Below, one piece after another: positions 29,661-46,342 of a DNA stretch of 64,000 bases. Below the pieces are notes generated by a model. It was not told where the DNA came from. It did not search any database and saw nothing but the letters and a program-made list of their open reading frames with translations. The DNA lies in IMG/VR virus record IMGVR_UViG_3300031857_022279. One strand, written 5' to 3'. Origin of the DNA: a virus. Every line of letters begins with the position of its first letter. Within the stretch, counting starts at the first letter, position 1. The translations under genes were made by a program, and so were the position numbers.

Positions 29661-31616
29661 TTACTCTTTTATAATCTGCTGTTTTTGAACACCAGTCTCT
29701 GTAGTGACAACAATCATATAAACACCAGATGAAAGTTCTGAAAGGTCTAAATTATAATTATTAGAATTAAATTGATAATTTAAAATTCTTGTTCCAATTG
29801 TATTATATACAGATACATCCCTAACATCATTTTTAAAGTTATCTGTAATATAAATTAAACCTTCACTTGGATTTGGGTAAATTACCAACTCTTGTTCTTC
29901 TTTTTCCAAAGATTCTTCAGTCTTATTATTAGGTTGAGAAGATTGAAGACTTCTCAATTCAACTTGAGTATACTCTGGTCTATTTCTAACGCTTTCTTTA
30001 TAGATAATATAAGTAGTAGTTGACTTGTTACCACACTCCGTAACAGTTCTAACTAATTTATACCACTTCTGAGTATAGAGTTCGCTATCACTAAAACCAT
30101 GAGTGTTTTCGGTTCTAATTAAATTCCAGTTGAAAGGAACATCTTCACTTAAATAAAGTTCCCATTTTTCACATCCTACTGTATTTGTTATGTTCACAGT
30201 TGTAAGTGAATATTTATCTTGTGAAGTCTGTTCAATACAATAGTCAAAATTTGGATCAATTGTATTTTTAAAACCATGAAGTTTTGCCATGAAGTTCTGC
30301 TTTCTAAGAATAGTATTAGGAGTCAATTGTATCCAACTTACAAAAGAACCACCAACAAATATTTCCCAGTTATCATTGCCATCATCTGTTGCATTAACAG
30401 CTAAACTACTACCAGTTCCTTGTCCATAGTTTCCTTCGAATCCATTAACATTAGTGCCTCCAAGACCTGCTCCAATATTGATAGTTTTAAACTCTTCATT
30501 TATCTGACCATCAGTTGTGAAAGCAGTAATCTTTGGAGTCCAAGTTGGTTGATAAACTTGTTGAGAAGTTGAACTAGCAAAGTTACCAGTTGCAATTAAA
30601 TTACAATTATAAAAACAAATATCCATAATTCTACCTGGACAACCTGGATTAAAAATAGGATCCACAGACCAGTTACCACCTAGAATGTTATATCTAACTA
30701 AATTTCTAAATCCAGAAACACCAGAGGCGGTGCTAATAGAACCGCTGAAATAAGATACTAAATCTCCTTCTATACCATCACATTCAGATCCATTAACAAA
30801 TATTATATCACTAATTGACATAGAGTTAGATAAATCTGTTATACCTGGAACTGGCTTAATTGTCATTTGCTCGTCAAGTTTAAAAATACCTACGTAGTTA
30901 TGACCTCCTAATTCAAAATTAAATGATCCACCACAAACTAATTCTTTTGTACCGGGTATCTTTGTTATTTTTGAAATAAGACCAGTAGGAGTTGGTAACT
31001 GAACAGTCTGTAAAACTTGACCAGTGTTTGGGTCACAACATACAATAGTCTGTGTGTAACTACTCGGTGTGCCAGTTTGAAATGAATAGTATAATTTATT
31101 GTTTTCAAAGTCGTGATAGATCGCAGAGCAAATACTAATCCAAGAAGTATAAGGACAAACGAAGTCTGTATCTCTAGTACCATCTGCGTTAACTTTATTT
31201 AAAAACCTAACACCCTGATTAACACCCCAGTTGAAACTGTTTCTTCCTGATATAAAAAACTCACCAGTTGGCTCACCACTTTCATTCTTCTCAGTCTCCA
31301 TACAAACTGTCGCAAACTGACCAGGCCAAGTTGCCATTTGATTATTAAAAAAAGATTGATCCTCATTTCCTGAGAAATCATATTTTCTAATTTTTGGGTA
31401 ACCAGGTTCTGTCTGGTATGCATAATAAACTGAATTACCAACAACCTCGACCCCTTGTGTCTTAAAGTTTCCGTTTGTTGAAAATGGAACTCCACCATTA
31501 TTAGGTAGAAAAGTGGTGTCTATACTACCTGCTAATTGACCAAAAGAGGAAATTCCAAGGCAAAGAGCTAAAGTCGTCATTACAAGTCGACTTAATTGAC
31601 ACTTAAAATTTTTCAT
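29661..31616 (-). CDS. Secreted beta-propeller (delta-60-like repeats) with T9SS C-terminal sorting domain
   Basis: Signal peptide ending SFG|Q; GSIDTTF / DGTRDTDF repeats; C-terminal IYPNPSEG...YNTIG...LDLSELSSGVYMI...QQIIKE. Confidence 0.85.
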   Translation of the reverse strand: MKNFKCQLSRLVMTTLALCLGISSFGQLAGSIDTTFLPNNGGVPFSTNGNFKTQGVEVVGNSVYYAYQTEPGYPKIRKYDFSGNEDQSFFNNQMATWPGQFATVCMETEKNESGEPTGEFFISGRNSFNWGVNQGVRFLNKVNADGTRDTDFVCPYTSWISICSAIYHDFENNKLYYSFQTGTPSSYTQTIVCCDPNTGQVLQTVQLPTPTGLISKITKIPGTKELVCGGSFNFELGGHNYVGIFKLDEQMTIKPVPGITDLSNSMSISDIIFVNGSECDGIEGDLVSYFSGSISTASGVSGFRNLVRYNILGGNWSVDPIFNPGCPGRIMDICFYNCNLIATGNFASSTSQQVYQPTWTPKITAFTTDGQINEEFKTINIGAGLGGTNVNGFEGNYGQGTGSSLAVNATDDGNDNWEIFVGGSFVSWIQLTPNTILRKQNFMAKLHGFKNTIDPNFDYCIEQTSQDKYSLTTVNITNTVGCEKWELYLSEDVPFNWNLIRTENTHGFSDSELYTQKWYKLVRTVTECGNKSTTTYIIYKESVRNRPEYTQVELRSLQSSQPNNKTEESLEKEEQELVIYPNPSEGLIYITDNFKNDVRDVSVYNTIGTRILNYQFNSNNYNLDLSELSSGVYMIVVTTETGVQKQQIIKE

Positions 31617-33309: not shown

Positions 33310-34775
33310 TTACTTCATTCCGGAAAATATATCTAAAACCACACTAAGTCTTTTTGTAATCTCAGGAAGACCAAGTGGATCTATAATAGAATTAATTGGA
33401 GATAAAATTGACTTCATAAACTGCTCGTCATAATCAATTTCTGGTGCAAATTCTATAGGATAGGAACCCCTAATAAAAGCAAACATATCATTTGTCTTTT
33501 TATTCTTACAATAATAGTATTTGATCTTAGTTCCTGACTTAATGAATTCGTACTTTGATTGTAATAACTTATTCTGATTTAAAAGATAGTTATGATAAGC
33601 TGCAGATTTAACAGCAAAGTGGGCACCACTAACAAATTCCAATCTATCTTTATCTTCTAAAACTTTGGTTTCATAATTAGAACAAGATGACTGCATCGAA
33701 ATATCATCGATATCTGCAAGTTCAAATTCTTTTCTAAGATTTTTAACTAATTTTAGTAGGTCTTTGATATTAAAGTCATCTGGATGGGCAAAAAGATATT
33801 TTACAATTTCAACAATCTTTTCACGGGCAAATGCCGGTGTAGAAGAACGAACAAGCTCAACACCTTTAGGAAAGATATAAGTTAGTCTATCATAAGGAAT
33901 ACCATCTTCATATACAATATGCTGAATGTACTTCTTTTTTGCTATATTAATAATTGATTCTGATATCCTTTCTAACTCAAAATCTTCTCTGTTTTTTACT
34001 CCATAACTACCAGCATATTCATCAAGACATTTTTTGAAATAATCTCCATACCTAAGTGCGTCTATACCATGTATGAAATCTAATTCATTATCCCAATTCC
34101 ACTGTATTTCTATATCCTTAATTAAATCCTGAATATCTTTTGAATTAAATGACCGGTCTTTAACAAAATACCCATCGATAATAATTAATTCCGGATTAGT
34201 ATTAGTTATAAAATCTTTAAAATCATTTACGTTCTTAAAGTGACCAATACAATTACTATTAGTAATTTTAGATTCTTGTCTTTTTTCTAGAAATACAAAC
34301 CTCTGATTTAAAGAATTCATCTTTGACAGTGGAAGATTCCTCCATTCACAATGTTGAATTGCTGGTTCAAAAGATACAAATAATGAATCCGTATCTGCAT
34401 AGATTGATACTTCATCACCGTCTTTTTTGGATAAAGAAGTGACATTCTTCACTCCAAGTTTAGAATGTAGTTCAAAATCTAGATGCCATTGTTCATACCA
34501 ATACTTTTCATTTACAGCATTCATAGTTTTAGTCAAGTCTCTGCCTTGCGCTGTTATAGTACCGGCGACGTGTTGATTAAACAGTATGAAATATTGCGTA
34601 GCAAATGCTCCGTAACTTCCATTTAATATTAATTTTAAAGCATTTTCCCCTCTGTCAAAAAACAGAGGGGTTATCGAGCCAACTGAAGAGCGTTGTAATA
34701 ATCAGATTCTCTCTTCAGTTGGTTGGCTTTAATTTTTAGTGACTCGATTTTTTTTAATTTATCTTCTCTCGTCAT
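33310..34775 (-). CDS. Family B DNA polymerase, C-terminal subunit (gp43B-like), interrupted by a 38-nt insert
   Basis: Segment 1 (34775-34677) is MTREDKLKK...YYNALQLA; segment 2 (34638-33310) is LKLILNGSYG...TAQGRD...IYADTDS...KKKY...KGVELVRSSTP. Joined, they give PolB motif B (Q...K...N..YG) and motif C (DTDS), about 475 aa. No exonuclease domain or motif A. Confidence 0.88.
34639..34679 (-). other. Candidate translational-bypass element: GCT-[CGA TAA CCCCTCTGT TTTTTG ACAGAGGGG AAAAT]-GCT
   Basis: Matched GCT codons at 34679-34677 and 34641-34639; stop at 34673-34671; perfect 9-bp stem 34670-34662 / 34655-34647; removing 38 nt restores the conserved motif. Confidence 0.75.
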
Positions 34776-34860: not shown

Positions 34861-35634
34861 TTAATCCTCCACACTAAAATCCTGTTCAAATGAAATCATA
34901 AGGTGACTCTCTTCGTCTTTCGTTAAAATAAAAGTTTCAAAAACGAAAAAGTGTACATGGTCACCACTATCATTGATAGAAGGTAGAAAAGTTTTGTTAA
35001 ACATTAGATGTCTATCAGTAACATCTACTTTGTCTACTTCAAATTCCCACGTTGATGTTTCAGAAAGAATAACCTTTTGACTATCTACGTTAAGATGAAC
35101 TACTTTACCGTCTGAGTTTATAGAGCAAAGTTTTTTAATATCTTGGAATTCACTACTTTCAACTTTAAAAGACCATTTAGACAATTTTGTATCGACTCTT
35201 TTAGATAAAACCGCTTTTGTTATATCTCTTATTTCTGAATTTTCACCACCTTGTATTGCAATTTTTAACTTACCATTTTTAATTTGTAAAAATCTTGCTA
35301 GAGATTGATCATCATCAGTTCTGTAATCAACAGTGACTGCAATTTTTTCAGATTTCTTTATAAATTGTAGATTCTTAACAAATTTCTTAGACCCTGAAAT
35401 TATTATATCAATAGTTTCATCAATATCCTCTTTAGTAGTTAAGTATTCGTTGGTATTAATGATGTAGCTTTTAAAGGCCAGTAGAATAGTTTCACCAACA
35501 ATAGAATACATTAAAATATTTTCTGAATCTATTTTTAACTTTAAGGTGTCACTTATTTTTGACAAATCTTCGAGCTTGTGAAGAAAATCTTCAAATTTAT
35601 CTCCGTTGATCGTGAAGTTAAGTTTCTTTGTCAT
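34861..35634 (-). CDS. Putative DNA sliding clamp (gp45/PCNA-like)
   Basis: 257 aa, alternating helix/strand two-domain pattern, directly upstream of polB; family assignment by size, pattern and context. Confidence 0.55.
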   Translation of the reverse strand: MTKKLNFTINGDKFEDFLHKLEDLSKISDTLKLKIDSENILMYSIVGETILLAFKSYIINTNEYLTTKEDIDETIDIIISGSKKFVKNLQFIKKSEKIAVTVDYRTDDDQSLARFLQIKNGKLKIAIQGGENSEIRDITKAVLSKRVDTKLSKWSFKVESSEFQDIKKLCSINSDGKVVHLNVDSQKVILSETSTWEFEVDKVDVTDRHLMFNKTFLPSINDSGDHVHFFVFETFILTKDEESHLMISFEQDFSVED

Positions 35635-35674: not shown

Positions 35675-36469
35675 TTGTTTTGTTTTATGACCGATAATGA
35701 AATGACCGGCAAAAGAATTAAAGTTCAAAGTATGAATGATCCTTACGTTAACTTAAAAGAGGACGATTTAGGAACAGTTGTTGGAACTGATGAACTTGGA
35801 AATTTAATTGTAGATTGGGACAAAGGTATTACTTTAAAAATAACACCAGAGATTGATGAGTTTGAAATAGTTGAAGAGTCAAGAAAACTACATAAATTTT
35901 TTGAGTTCAAAGTAGAAGATAATATTAATGTTGATTTCATTTCTGCTAAAATGTACGAGTTAAGTGATTTAGTCTCTGAATATTCCGGAATCTCATTTGA
36001 GTATCACATACATTCTGAAAAAGAAAATTCAAATGAAATGGGTATTTTAGAAGTTTCATTGAGTTCAACTGAAACAGATATTAAAATATCTTGGATTTTA
36101 GACTTAGATAAACCTAATTTAAAAGTTGAAGAGTCTACTTCAGATACAACTGAAGAAGTTTATAGTTCACACCTTGAAAATATTGAAGAGGGATTAGACA
36201 TTATAGAGCATCATGTTCATAATATTTTTGAGATATCAGAGAGAAAAAAGGCACAAAGATATAAAGGTAGAAAAATTCCTGGAAAGTATCTCGCTGGTCC
36301 TCATCCAAGTAAGATGAAGAAGGAAATAGATAGATTCGTGGGAAAAAAAGAATACAAAAAAGATTGGGATGCCGACTACAAGTCTGGAAAAGGTGGTGAG
36401 GGAGAAAGAGTTAAGACTAAAAAATCTGCGGCTACAAAAGCTTACCAAAAAATGTTTGGTGATAAATAA
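35675..36469 (+). CDS. Hypothetical modular protein (SH3-like DUF4314-type N-terminus, basic C-terminal module)
   Basis: GKRIKVQSMNDPY..L...DLGTVVG.DELG.L.VDWD.G..L; C-terminal IPGKYL...KTKKSAATKAYQKMFG. Confidence 0.65.
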   Translation: MFCFMTDNEMTGKRIKVQSMNDPYVNLKEDDLGTVVGTDELGNLIVDWDKGITLKITPEIDEFEIVEESRKLHKFFEFKVEDNINVDFISAKMYELSDLVSEYSGISFEYHIHSEKENSNEMGILEVSLSSTETDIKISWILDLDKPNLKVEESTSDTTEEVYSSHLENIEEGLDIIEHHVHNIFEISERKKAQRYKGRKIPGKYLAGPHPSKMKKEIDRFVGKKEYKKDWDADYKSGKGGEGERVKTKKSAATKAYQKMFGDK

Positions 36470-36480
36470 AATATAATAAT

Positions 36481-37041
36481 ATGGAAATTAAGAAATTTGG
36501 AAAACCTGAGAAACCTGTCATCGAAGACAAGGTTGAGAAAAATGGTTCAGTCGTAGTACCAAAAAAACTAAACGAACAAACAGTATCTCAATTGACTGAC
36601 AGACTAAAAGATGAGTACACTGCTCACTTCTATTACAGATCTGCGGCTAACTGGTGTCGTAATATGAATTACAAAAAAGCTGCTGCGTTTTTTGAAAACG
36701 AAGCGAATACTGAGTTAGAACATGCAACTGGATTACAAGAATATATGGATGACTTCAATGTTCAGCCTGAAATACCACAAACTGAGACTGATTTTAAATT
36801 CTCTACATTAGTTGATATTATCAACGGTGCATATGATATGGAATTGAATCTATTGAACGCATATAACAAAAGCTCTTCAGAATTATTCACTAGTGATTTA
36901 ACAACATTTGATTTTTTACAAAGTTATAGAACAGGTCAAAAAGAAGCTGTTATTGAGTATTCTGACTTACTAAATGCATTGGTGTTAGTAGATCACAATG
37001 ATAAATTCCAAGTTCTTTACTTTGAACAAACTTACTTTTAA
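36481..37041 (+). CDS. Ferritin-like protein (non-heme ferritin type)
   Basis: DEYTAHFYY...W...AAAFF..EA..ELEHA..L.EY...Q.E ferroxidase-centre residues. Confidence 0.85.
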   Translation: MEIKKFGKPEKPVIEDKVEKNGSVVVPKKLNEQTVSQLTDRLKDEYTAHFYYRSAANWCRNMNYKKAAAFFENEANTELEHATGLQEYMDDFNVQPEIPQTETDFKFSTLVDIINGAYDMELNLLNAYNKSSSELFTSDLTTFDFLQSYRTGQKEAVIEYSDLLNALVLVDHNDKFQVLYFEQTYF

Positions 37042-44345: not shown

Positions 44346-46265
44346 TTATTCTTTTACAAACTTAATTGTTTTAAATGATTCTCTATCAAAAACAGAAAGG
44401 ATGTAGTATCCTTTTTCACAATTTTGTAAGTTCATTTCTACAAAATTTTTCCCAACTTTCGCTTGGAAATTAGTTTTCTGAACAATCCTGCCAGTAGCAT
44501 CAGTAATAGTAATGTCATAATATGATTCATTTTTTGATTCGAAGTTTACATTAAGAAGTTCTTTTGCTGGGTTTGGGAACACAGAAATTGATTCTAATTT
44601 TTCTCTATCGATTGATACTATTTCAGAAGTACTTTCCGACTCTCTGAATGTTGCTGAACTTGTCGATGCTAATAAATTATAGCAAAGTGTGGAGTTAAAA
44701 GCTCCTGCATACCCAAAAACGTATACCTTGTAAGTTCCTACTGGGCCATTATTATAAATGATTAGTTCTGAAGTTGTGCCACTGTTTAAGGAAGATCCGA
44801 CTTGAACATTTGAAGGGTTGTAAAGTCTTACATCATAATCAGCTGGTAAATTACTAAGATTTATTTTTACATTTCTATTTGTTGTCGTTGTGGTGAATTT
44901 GAAATAGTCTTTATCAGTGCTGGTTGAAATTCTTGCAGTAATTGTTGTATTTACTGGTATAGTTTTAGCAGTGTTTAGACTATTATTCGACTCATAAGTA
45001 TCTGTACAACTAGTTGACTGAGAAAGAGTTGTAAAACTCGATTGAGTTGAGTAATTACTTGTTGTAGTTCCACAAACTGACTGAACTTGGAAATTATAAG
45101 TTGTGTTAGTGGTGAGACCTGTCAGTGAAACTGAAGTTGAAGTCGTGTTCACAGTAGTCCAAGTACTAGATGTGGAAAGCTTCCACTGTAGATTATAAGA
45201 ACTTACTCCCGCAATAGATGACCAAGATATAGTCGCAGTATTAGTTGTTACGATTGATGAAGAAACTCCCGAAGGAACTGAACAGGTTGTTGTATTCGGA
45301 GCAGAACATCCAAGAGATGTCAAAAGAGAAGATCTTGCGCCTCCAGATGTAAAAAGAGCTTGACTTCTTACCGCCTGACCATTTGAGAACATATACATAC
45401 ATGCGTCATCTGTATAATCCATAAAATTCATTGTCATTTCAACAGGAGATCCAGTACAAGTTGAAAGATGTGGATATGTTGGACACCCATAATTTGCAGT
45501 ATTATGAGTTGGTGTATCAGACACTAAGTCACTTCCACAGTTAGCATCTCCCCATATGTGTCTGAGATTTAACCAGTGACCCACTTCGTGTGTTGCTGTT
45601 CTTCCAAGTCCAAATGCTCCTCCAGAAGGATTTGAAACACTACCAACACAAGATGAAGTAAGTACAACTCCATCAGTTGCAACAGTTCCACCTGGAAATT
45701 GAGCGTATCCTAAAACACCACCACTAAGATTACAAACCCAAATGTTTAAATAACTTGAACTAGGCCAAGCATCAAGACCTCCTTGAGCAAAATACTTAAC
45801 AGTATTATTAGTTGAAAAGGATGTTGCTGTTGTTTGTCTTCTTTGAATTCCTGTTGTTGGATTTCCATTCGGATCTCTTGTCGCGAGACAAAATTGTATA
45901 TCCATGTTTCCTGTTGGTTGAAAGACAGAAGGAGTACTAGAATTATCACTGTTTAATTTAGAAAAATCTAAATTTAATTGACTTAACTGTGAGTTTATTT
46001 TAGAGTCACTTATATTTTGTGAAGTAGTATTGTAAACTATGTGAAAAACTACTGGTATTGTTACAATTGCTCTTGATGAGCCATCATAGTTTCTAATAAA
46101 ATCATTTGTAAATTGTTCAATCTGTTCTTGATTGATTTGATAGTTTGGATCAATCAATAATTGACTCTGATGATATTCATCTTGACCACAAATCCGTTGT
46201 GAATATGATTCACTAAATAAAAATAGTGAAACACCTAATAATAGAAAATTAATAAACTTTTTCAT
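44346..46265 (-). CDS. M43 (pappalysin/ulilysin-like) zinc metalloprotease with FN3, PPC-like and T9SS sorting domains
   Basis: Signal peptide MKKFINFLLLG...SYS|Q; RICG propeptide; GRTATHEVGHWLNLRHIWGD; NFMDYT Met-turn; FN3; C-terminal VFPNPAK...DATGR...GYYILSV...KFVKE. ORF track starts at 46313. Confidence 0.9.
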   Translation of the reverse strand: MKKFINFLLLGVSLFLFSESYSQRICGQDEYHQSQLLIDPNYQINQEQIEQFTNDFIRNYDGSSRAIVTIPVVFHIVYNTTSQNISDSKINSQLSQLNLDFSKLNSDNSSTPSVFQPTGNMDIQFCLATRDPNGNPTTGIQRRQTTATSFSTNNTVKYFAQGGLDAWPSSSYLNIWVCNLSGGVLGYAQFPGGTVATDGVVLTSSCVGSVSNPSGGAFGLGRTATHEVGHWLNLRHIWGDANCGSDLVSDTPTHNTANYGCPTYPHLSTCTGSPVEMTMNFMDYTDDACMYMFSNGQAVRSQALFTSGGARSSLLTSLGCSAPNTTTCSVPSGVSSSIVTTNTATISWSSIAGVSSYNLQWKLSTSSTWTTVNTTSTSVSLTGLTTNTTYNFQVQSVCGTTTSNYSTQSSFTTLSQSTSCTDTYESNNSLNTAKTIPVNTTITARISTSTDKDYFKFTTTTTNRNVKINLSNLPADYDVRLYNPSNVQVGSSLNSGTTSELIIYNNGPVGTYKVYVFGYAGAFNSTLCYNLLASTSSATFRESESTSEIVSIDREKLESISVFPNPAKELLNVNFESKNESYYDITITDATGRIVQKTNFQAKVGKNFVEMNLQNCEKGYYILSVFDRESFKTIKFVKE

Positions 46266-46312
46266 CGAATTTTTTATTTTTATATATCTTTTTTTGACTC
46301 TTTTAAAAAACA

Positions 46313-46342
46313 AAAAAGACCCAAATAAATTTGGGTCTTTTT
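46313..46342 (-). terminator. Terminator after the small lipoprotein gene
   Basis: AAAAAGACCCAAA-ta-aaTTTGGGTCTTTTT inverted repeat. Confidence 0.65.

Follow-up and report, generated by a model that had tools for sequence, protein, structure and literature searches.

A 38-nucleotide (nt) insert interrupts motif B of the split family-B DNA polymerase gene (polB) of a huge freshwater phage, encoded on the minus strand of the viral record IMGVR_UViG_3300031857_022279 (IMG/VR), of which we analysed a stretch of 64,000 nt (the window; 31% GC). The most probable explanation, to which we assign a probability of about 0.68, is programmed translational bypass: these 38 nt would serve as the bypass element and would be what is left of a mobile cassette that invaded the motif-B region of the gene for the polymerase C-half (PolB-C). 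The insert is real and stable, and the reading frame which follows it (exon 2) is under purifying selection; that ribosomes hop over the insert is what we infer from comparison of the sequence with its relatives.

The polymerase is of the split family-B form, in which motif B (KxxxNSxYG) and motif C (DTDS) are carried by the C-half gene; the N-half, with the exonuclease domain and motif A, is a separate gene in relatives and is not found within the window. The coordinates of the interrupted gene are collected in Table 1. A first-pass annotation of the window had described an ATG at 34775, an open reading frame (ORF) of 33 codons ending in GCT, the codons CGA TAA, a stem and a second GCT, and all of these are present on the minus strand at the positions it gave. 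Exon 1 has the same N-terminus in relatives, where it runs unbroken into motif B. Exon 2 lies in the −1 frame, reads LKLILNGSYGAF...YADTDS and remains open up to a stop at 33310; this ORF is recognised by Pfam as DNA_pol_B (3.6e-17). When the 38 nt are removed by joining GCT to GCT, as the annotation had suggested, the product YYNALQLALKLILNGSYG has a seamless motif B, collinear with that of uninterrupted relatives. Its other statements on the gene hold as well: CGA is disfavoured by this phage (1.4 per 1000 codons vs. 25.5 for AGA), the downstream (−1) frame is open from 34701 across the insert, and the ORF beginning at 34536, a TTG and the first start codon after the insert, lacks motif B. 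Gene callers render this polymerase as an ORF of 34 amino acids (aa) plus a truncated ORF, which leads to misannotation in huge-phage genomes.

The closest public relatives are 'uncultured phage' genomes of 634–735 kilobases (kb), namely LR745206, LR756502, LR756504, and LR756501. All four share the gene start and read without a break through ...DYYNA(L/M)QLALKLVLNGSYG, or a diverged equivalent, and the window thus has a net insertion of 38 nt placed exactly at the start of motif B. Megablast of the window against phage records returned no near-identical record, and exact scans for the hairpin pattern in IMG/VR and in JGI metagenome contigs, collections which are not exhaustive, gave no match. 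Despite these empty scans, a protein look-up brought out contigs from JGI, ENA, NCBI, and Logan that contain the hairpin: among the matches to the neighbouring 257-aa protein, nine independently assembled contigs from different samples reach the site, and these are 98.9–100% identical to the window and carry the identical insert. An assembly error in this record, which the first-pass annotation had wished to see excluded, is therefore not the explanation. In the insert-bearing strains, the codon differences in exon 2 with respect to the window are mostly synonymous (10:3, 13:4, 12:2, and 11:5 synonymous:nonsynonymous) and none creates a stop, indicating that the landing frame is translated and under selection in phages which bear the insert. 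Furthermore, two insert-bearing relatives that are 98% complete (483 and 465 kb) each encode a single N-half and a single C-half, 100–130 kb apart, with no spare copy.

A scan of IMG/VR with exon 2, combined with alignment of the spliced peptides, retrieved 60 loci with 55–77% identity, 21 of which are uninterrupted and 35 of which have inserts of 36–48 nt. Counting that of the window, there are 29 distinct insert sequences, occurring at six positions within ten codons of motif B (Table 1), 33–42 codons into the C-half gene. Same-site inserts that differ in sequence and keep codons, stop, and stem, which the first-pass annotation had proposed to look for, thus do exist. Their lengths fall into all three classes modulo 3, and the downstream ORF is intact in every case. 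In 22/29 elements the first base of the C-run of the stem is also the first base of an upstream-frame codon, and in 22/29 this base follows the presumed take-off codon after exactly 6 nt. Between junction and stem, 23/29 have a stop in the upstream frame (frame 0), and only 2 have one in another frame. Five of the six positions have inserts that open with a codon synonymous with the one that opens exon 2, the pairs being GCT/GCT or GCA, CTT/CTA, GTT/GTA or GTT, GGT/GGT, and TCT/TCA. All 11 distinct elements of class A have CTN at both places, as would be needed if one and the same tRNA re-pairs; in insert-less genes, that Leu is encoded by TTA or TTG in 7/17 cases. The 3′ tails of the inserts consist mainly of A (58% A, 19% T; median 7 nt), and a cognate-like triplet was found in none of the 20 tails outside site D.

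All 29 elements have a hairpin of 9–16 base pairs (bp), whose folding free energy lies between −17 and −31 kcal/mol. CCCCC/GGGGG is conserved as the outer part of the stem, covariation is seen in the inner part, G·U pairs are present, and many of the loops are GNRA or UUCG; these properties point to a structure acting as sense-strand RNA. In the window, the hairpin is a perfect 9-bp stem with a 6-nt loop (TTTTTG), extended by RNAfold to 10 bp through a U·G pair, and its pattern was found 0 times in 100 shuffles. There are nine GC-rich perfect hairpins in the window, that of polB being the only one located inside a gene. The other eight are intergenic and several of them are followed by a run of Ts, as intrinsic terminators are; the polB hairpin, unlike these, has no T-run after the stem on either strand, and its reading as a terminator was rejected. 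A dispersed repeat was rejected likewise, the in-gene GC hairpin being unique to polB in the window and absent elsewhere in the 64 loci. In relatives (483-kb and 242-kb genomes), a CCCCC...GGGGG hairpin gave one extra match only; this one overlaps the stop of a gene, at the 3′ end, in a place where two genes converge, and resembles a terminator.

A second structure precedes the gap. In the window, the last base in the 3′ arm of this 5′ stem-loop is the first base of the take-off codon. The 60 nt ending at the take-off codon were folded for 29 insert-bearing and 16 insert-less alleles: in classes A and A′ a stem-loop is formed in all (10–13 bp, −15 to −28 kcal/mol), with the 3′ arm ending at the take-off codon, whereas insert-less alleles do not have it, the same region giving −2 to −11.5 kcal/mol. 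The overall difference between the two groups is marked (Mann–Whitney p = 2e-6, computed on sequences that are not independent). The stem is made from synonymous codon choices, e.g., GCG AGC GAG CTG pairing with CAG CTC GCT C; exon 1 has therefore evolved together with the insert. MAFFT alignment of the inserts alone was not structure-consistent; the stems were anchored by script and RNAalifold was applied to exon 1 plus insert. Both hairpins were found, with compensatory changes in 10/16 pairs and, for the 5′ stem-loop, in 4/7 consensus pairs, so that the covariation check proposed in the first-pass annotation turned out positive. The 107-nt region of the window folds with −40.4 kcal/mol (z = −7.95). 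RNAfold also draws a 7-bp outer helix, UUAAAGC/GCUUUAA (34726–34732 with 34635–34641), which encloses both hairpins and joins sequence upstream of the 5′ stem-loop to the region of the landing codon; in this AT-rich sequence it may be chance pairing.

On a tree of PolB-C built with the motif-B columns removed, the insert state changes 22 times, 14 of which concern presence or absence. Loci whose PolB-C proteins are identical or nearly so have different elements, placed at different sites (L013, class A′, vs. L024, class D; L038, class S, vs. L048, class A), and the insert-less L014 is in PolB-C near-identical to L021 and L022, both with D inserts. L021 corresponds to L014 plus an upstream 860-nt ORF and a 39-nt insert. 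Moreover, L024 and L013 are 92% identical over 4.3 kb from the exact 3′ end of the L024 insert and unalignable upstream, and this very end is, as judged from the alignment, a recombination breakpoint.

An ORF cluster (c2; 255–389 aa, divergently oriented, 3–84 nt from the polB-C start) is found upstream in 20/40 insert-bearing vs. 0/21 insert-less loci (Fisher p = 2.8e-5). Pfam gives DUF7487 only, the C-terminal domain has no match to a Pfam HNH family at E up to 10, and a sequence search of the PDB gave nothing useful; PHROG 3339 and 12131, both annotated 'homing endonuclease', match at 1e-12 to 1e-18. A pattern PTIDHK..GF.N..NLC.TKR.INS.K is conserved, with most positions invariant, and the AlphaFold model (predicted local distance difference test, pLDDT, of 79) has only HNH domains as top Foldseek matches, all of them weak (E = 0.1–0.4). 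Taken together, the c2 product is predicted to be an HNH-like homing endonuclease. The window has no homing endonuclease gene between the 257-aa gene and polB-C. In other loci, a gene with GIY-YIG and NUMOD3 domains lies upstream of polB-C, both in an insert-bearing lineage (L048:2020-2784) and in an insert-less one (L034-L036, ~2064-2825), pointing to competition among different families of nucleases for this site.

The favoured reading, translational bypass, can be pictured as follows. Three components would make up the cassette: the gene for the homing endonuclease, exon 1 in a re-coded form, and the hairpin gap. A ribosome with the 33-residue nascent chain would stall with peptidyl-tRNA-Ala on GCT (34679–77), owing to the very stable hairpin two codons downstream and to the in-frame stop. 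The tRNA would unpair and the ribosome would slide over 35 nt, a movement that refolding of the hairpin, and of the 5′ stem-loop behind the ribosome, may help; the tRNA would then re-pair with the second GCT (34641–39), and decoding would resume at TTA AAA to give ...QLALKLILNGSYG. The joined product would carry the junction peptide ...ESDYYNALQLALK (...YYNALQLALK...). In the DNA itself, the HNH-like endonuclease of the cassette most likely loses its target site through the insert, which would confer immunity; the cassette-bearing allele would thus, most likely, be protected from its own nuclease. The phage of the window would since have lost the endonuclease gene.

Several observations weigh against a bypass. 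A stop between junction and stem is missing in 6/29 elements; where present, it is usually the second codon past take-off and not, as in T4, the first. The codon after take-off is in relatives usually a common sense codon (TTT, GGA, AGA); the rare CGA, which the first-pass annotation had counted among the hallmarks, is therefore not a family-wide feature, and a hungry codon was rejected as the general trigger. Site-D elements have no cognate landing codon under any register and only a weak 5′ structure, pointing to relaxed landing rules or to another mechanism at that site; the identical take-off and landing codons noticed in the annotation thus hold for the window, have matched counterparts in five of the six site classes, and fail at site D. 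The SD-like (Shine-Dalgarno) G-run that it had also listed is indeed present, its end in the window being 5 nt away from the landing codon (family median 7 nt). Its role as an SD is uncertain: SD-like leaders are found in only 2/40 window genes, and this near-absence makes SD-assisted landing, known from T4, doubtful. Finally, the 29 elements are related by phylogeny and do not provide independent counts, and the linkage of c2 to the inserts, when evaluated on independent pairs, was 4:0 with a median p of ~0.125.

The main rival is excision at the RNA level, i.e., a hairpin micro-intron cut from the mRNA by an endonuclease of phage or host and followed by ligation. Such a mechanism would serve equally for the six site classes, among them site D with neither matched codons nor a strong 5′ stem-loop; it agrees with a hairpin that acts as RNA (G·U pairs, GNRA loops), and introns and inteins are the classical mobile elements of conserved polymerase motifs, with split inteins present in this gene in some relatives. 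However, there are no conserved nucleotides at the junctions, and the stem is separated from the 3′ junction by anything between 4 and 17 nt, unlike what an enzyme measuring from the hairpin would produce. Nor would excision lead one to expect stops in frame 0, a stem phased with the codons, a synonymous codon in duplicate, or the restriction to codons of the same tRNA (CTN). Furthermore, a size of 36–48 nt is far below that of group I and group II introns, Rfam gave for the insert region only chance matches far below the gathering scores, and no bulge-helix-bulge geometry was recognised by eye (no formal scoring). We consider RNA excision unlikely.

Termination at the TAA with release of a 34-aa peptide, the rest being made separately from a restart, would result in a polymerase of three or more pieces. 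This polymerase is already split, with halves ~100 kb apart, and the A-rich tail of the gap resembles the leaders of this phage's genes. Nevertheless, neither the window nor most relatives offer an in-frame ATG, GTG, or TTG at the landing codon or close to it; exon 2 begins with GCT, GCA, CTA, GTA, GGT, TCA, or GGA. The resulting break would cut the motif-B helix just before the catalytic Lys and leave the matched codons and the 5′ stem-loop unexplained, and we regard such a restart as highly improbable. Still poorer are the prospects of a −1 frameshift upstream of the stop, which in the window would find the landing frame open and would add ~12 residues (SITPLFFDRGEN) inside motif B. A slippery heptamer is absent, and a path with a single shift exists in only ~6/29 elements; in 10 the landing codon is immediately preceded by a stop of its own frame, and in 10 a length divisible by 3 is combined with an in-frame stop. 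Moreover, twelve extra residues would disrupt the motif-B helix. As to a pseudogene made by an inactivating insertion, or an assembly artefact, the gene is certainly broken under the standard decoding rules, but the identical insert in nine independent assemblies, the purifying selection on exon 2, whose frame is intact in every insert-bearing relative, and its presence in the only C-half of two 98%-complete relatives render this explanation scarcely credible.

Table 1. Elements of the interrupted polB C-half gene and its upstream neighbour in the window, and classes of inserts in the family
Feature	Coordinates	Strand	Description
Exon 2 of PolB C-half	33310..34641	minus	ALKLILNGSYG (motif B), YADTDS (motif C), thumb domain; 443 codons plus stop
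Presumed landing codon GCT	34639..34641	minus	Second GCT, matches take-off GCT
A-rich 3′ tail of gap, AAAAT	34642..34646	minus	Between G-run and landing codon
Take-off hairpin	34647..34670	minus	CCCCTCTGT(T) / (G)ACAGAGGGG, 9–10 bp, starts 6 nt past take-off codon
CGA then TAA, upstream frame	34671..34676	minus	CGA 34676–74, TAA 34673–71, directly before stem
Exon 1 of PolB C-half gene	34677..34775	minus	ATG plus 32 codons (MTREDKLKKIESLKIKANQLKRESDYYNALQLA), the last being GCT (34679–34677), presumed take-off codon
5′ stem-loop	34679..34722	minus	Perfect 12-bp stem, CCAACTGAAGAG (34722–34711) / CTCTTCAGTTGG (34690–34679)
Conserved upstream gene, cluster c0	34861..35634	minus	257 aa; no family match; abuts polB-C
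Insert class A′ (class of the window)			Before Ala
Insert class A			Before Leu
Insert class B			Before Val
Insert class C			Before Gly
Insert class S			Before Ser
Insert class D			Between Tyr and Gly; 9 distinct elements

Two window proteins, encoded at 29661-31616 (−) and 44346-46313 (−), end in a type IX secretion C-terminal sorting domain; in the latter, Por_Secre_tail was confirmed by Pfam, which also reports an M43 peptidase and an fn3 domain. These proteins suggest a host of the Bacteroidota type, with which the SD-poor leaders are consistent. Divergent to the 257-aa gene, the window encodes a DUF4314-domain protein (35675-36469, +), after which comes a ferritin-like gene (36481-37041). 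In many relatives, with or without insert, a phage IF3 gene (Pfam IF3_N plus IF3_C) is positioned directly upstream of polB-C (e.g., L017:2122-2661, also L010, L024, L033, L050, and others); it is absent at that position in the window. The C-half of polB is further broken by split inteins (N and C parts of Intein_splicing) in L047:1098-4077, L061:1153-3828, and L045:3115-4925. Between the intein halves of L047 and L061 lies an ORF of 367–371 aa with no known family, an arrangement of the 'fractured gene' kind described by Dassa et al. (2009); a kinship of these ORFs with the upstream HNH-like gene was considered, and they proved unrelated. The halves in L045 are separated by a short gap with no ORF. 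Among the inserts, the elements L043:2944-2985 and L045:2960-3000 are identical but for one G in the G-run (42 vs. 41 nt); a one-base change in length would be lethal in coding sequence and harmless in a skipped gap, or it could be a homopolymer sequencing error.

What is known of the rules of translational bypass (nascent peptide, stem-loops, SD, matched codons) comes for the most part from T4. To our knowledge, efficient bypass of tens of nucleotides is represented by only a handful of natural systems, chiefly the T4 gene 60 family, the yeast mitochondrial byps, and recently phiHau3. T4 gene 60 reportedly contains a 50-nt bypass within a MobA (HNH) homing-endonuclease cassette. The polB element resembles it in many respects: the host of the gap is an essential, already split replication gene; the gap comes early in the downstream half, here after 33–42 codons; there are matched codons and an in-frame stop at the start of the gap; a stable, covarying take-off stem-loop with tetraloops is accompanied by a 5′ stem-loop upstream; and a G-rich run 5–8 nt before landing is followed by an A-rich tail devoid of premature landing triplets. 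In both systems the gap is linked to a free-standing gene for an HNH-type endonuclease, the window representing the state in which the gap is kept and the nuclease is absent. The gene 60/MobA cassette family and its homologues in Myoviridae topoisomerases have been surveyed by Manning and Atkins (bioRxiv 10.1101/2022.08.31.505936), who find gene 60-type cassettes exclusively in topoisomerase genes and do not mention polymerases, describe the 5′ stem-loop upstream of the take-off site of T4 gene 60, and include in the family genomes with the bypass kept and the nuclease lost.

The differences from T4 gene 60 are equally clear. Here the gap is in motif B of polB instead of a topoisomerase, with no sequence homology shown; it measures 36–48 nt and has a long CCCCC/GGGGG stem; and the stop is usually the second codon past take-off, whereas that of T4 is the first. 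The polB elements occupy six positions in 10 codons, compared with one position ± one codon, and one class of inserts has no matched codons. The linked endonuclease gene is divergent, the gene for the N-half is ~100 kb away, and the presumed host is Bacteroidota-like without use of SD. The mitochondria of Magnusiomyces capitatus are said to harbour byps as 81 dispersed copies in many genes. These byps, like our elements, are short (27–55 nt) hairpin inserts with relaxed matching rules, an AU-rich 3′ part, and no SD; unlike them, they are dispersed, involve unassigned codons, and have no stops, whereas the huge-phage element is found only in polB and has a stop.

Among the remaining systems, the terminase of Streptomyces phage phiHau3 is bypassed at a rare UUA, with an RNA structure that brings the landing codon near the take-off codon (RNA Biol 2023, PMC10732093). 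It shares with polB a phage setting and two frames joined by hopping, and differs in the gene, in the rare-codon trigger, and in having no endonuclease cassette. A 29-nt hop has been reported in plaA of Prevotella loescheii (cited in PMC5009743), a member of the Bacteroidota in which two frames would likewise be joined by hopping; the gene is again a different one, and, going by that citation, there is no endonuclease cassette and the report was never followed up. Group I introns, inteins, and 'fractured genes' are documented in motifs of phage and archaeal DNA polymerases (Dassa et al. 2009, PMC2677866). Like the polB inserts, they are selfish elements homing into the most conserved polymerase motifs; the polB insert, however, has 38 nt, with no ribozyme, no coding capacity for an intein, and no Rfam family.

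Judged on these comparisons, the polB element appears to be one that works like a gene 60-type cassette and is not a member of that family, given the different gene and the lack of shown homology. The literature found by our search describes no bypass in a phage polymerase, as the first-pass annotation had supposed for replicative polymerases. We are inclined to believe, with some reservation, that the inserts constitute a second, evolutionarily independent family of natural bypass elements, borne by HNH cassettes in polB motif B of huge phages with non-SD hosts, with ~30 variants, six take-off positions, and one class landing without a cognate codon. If so, the association of a homing endonuclease with a bypass gap would be a recurrent evolutionary route into indispensable motifs. 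Such a family would also amount to a natural mutagenesis series, with dozens of variants and differing take-off positions in a host that is likely SD-independent, and could be used to test which features of bypass are general.

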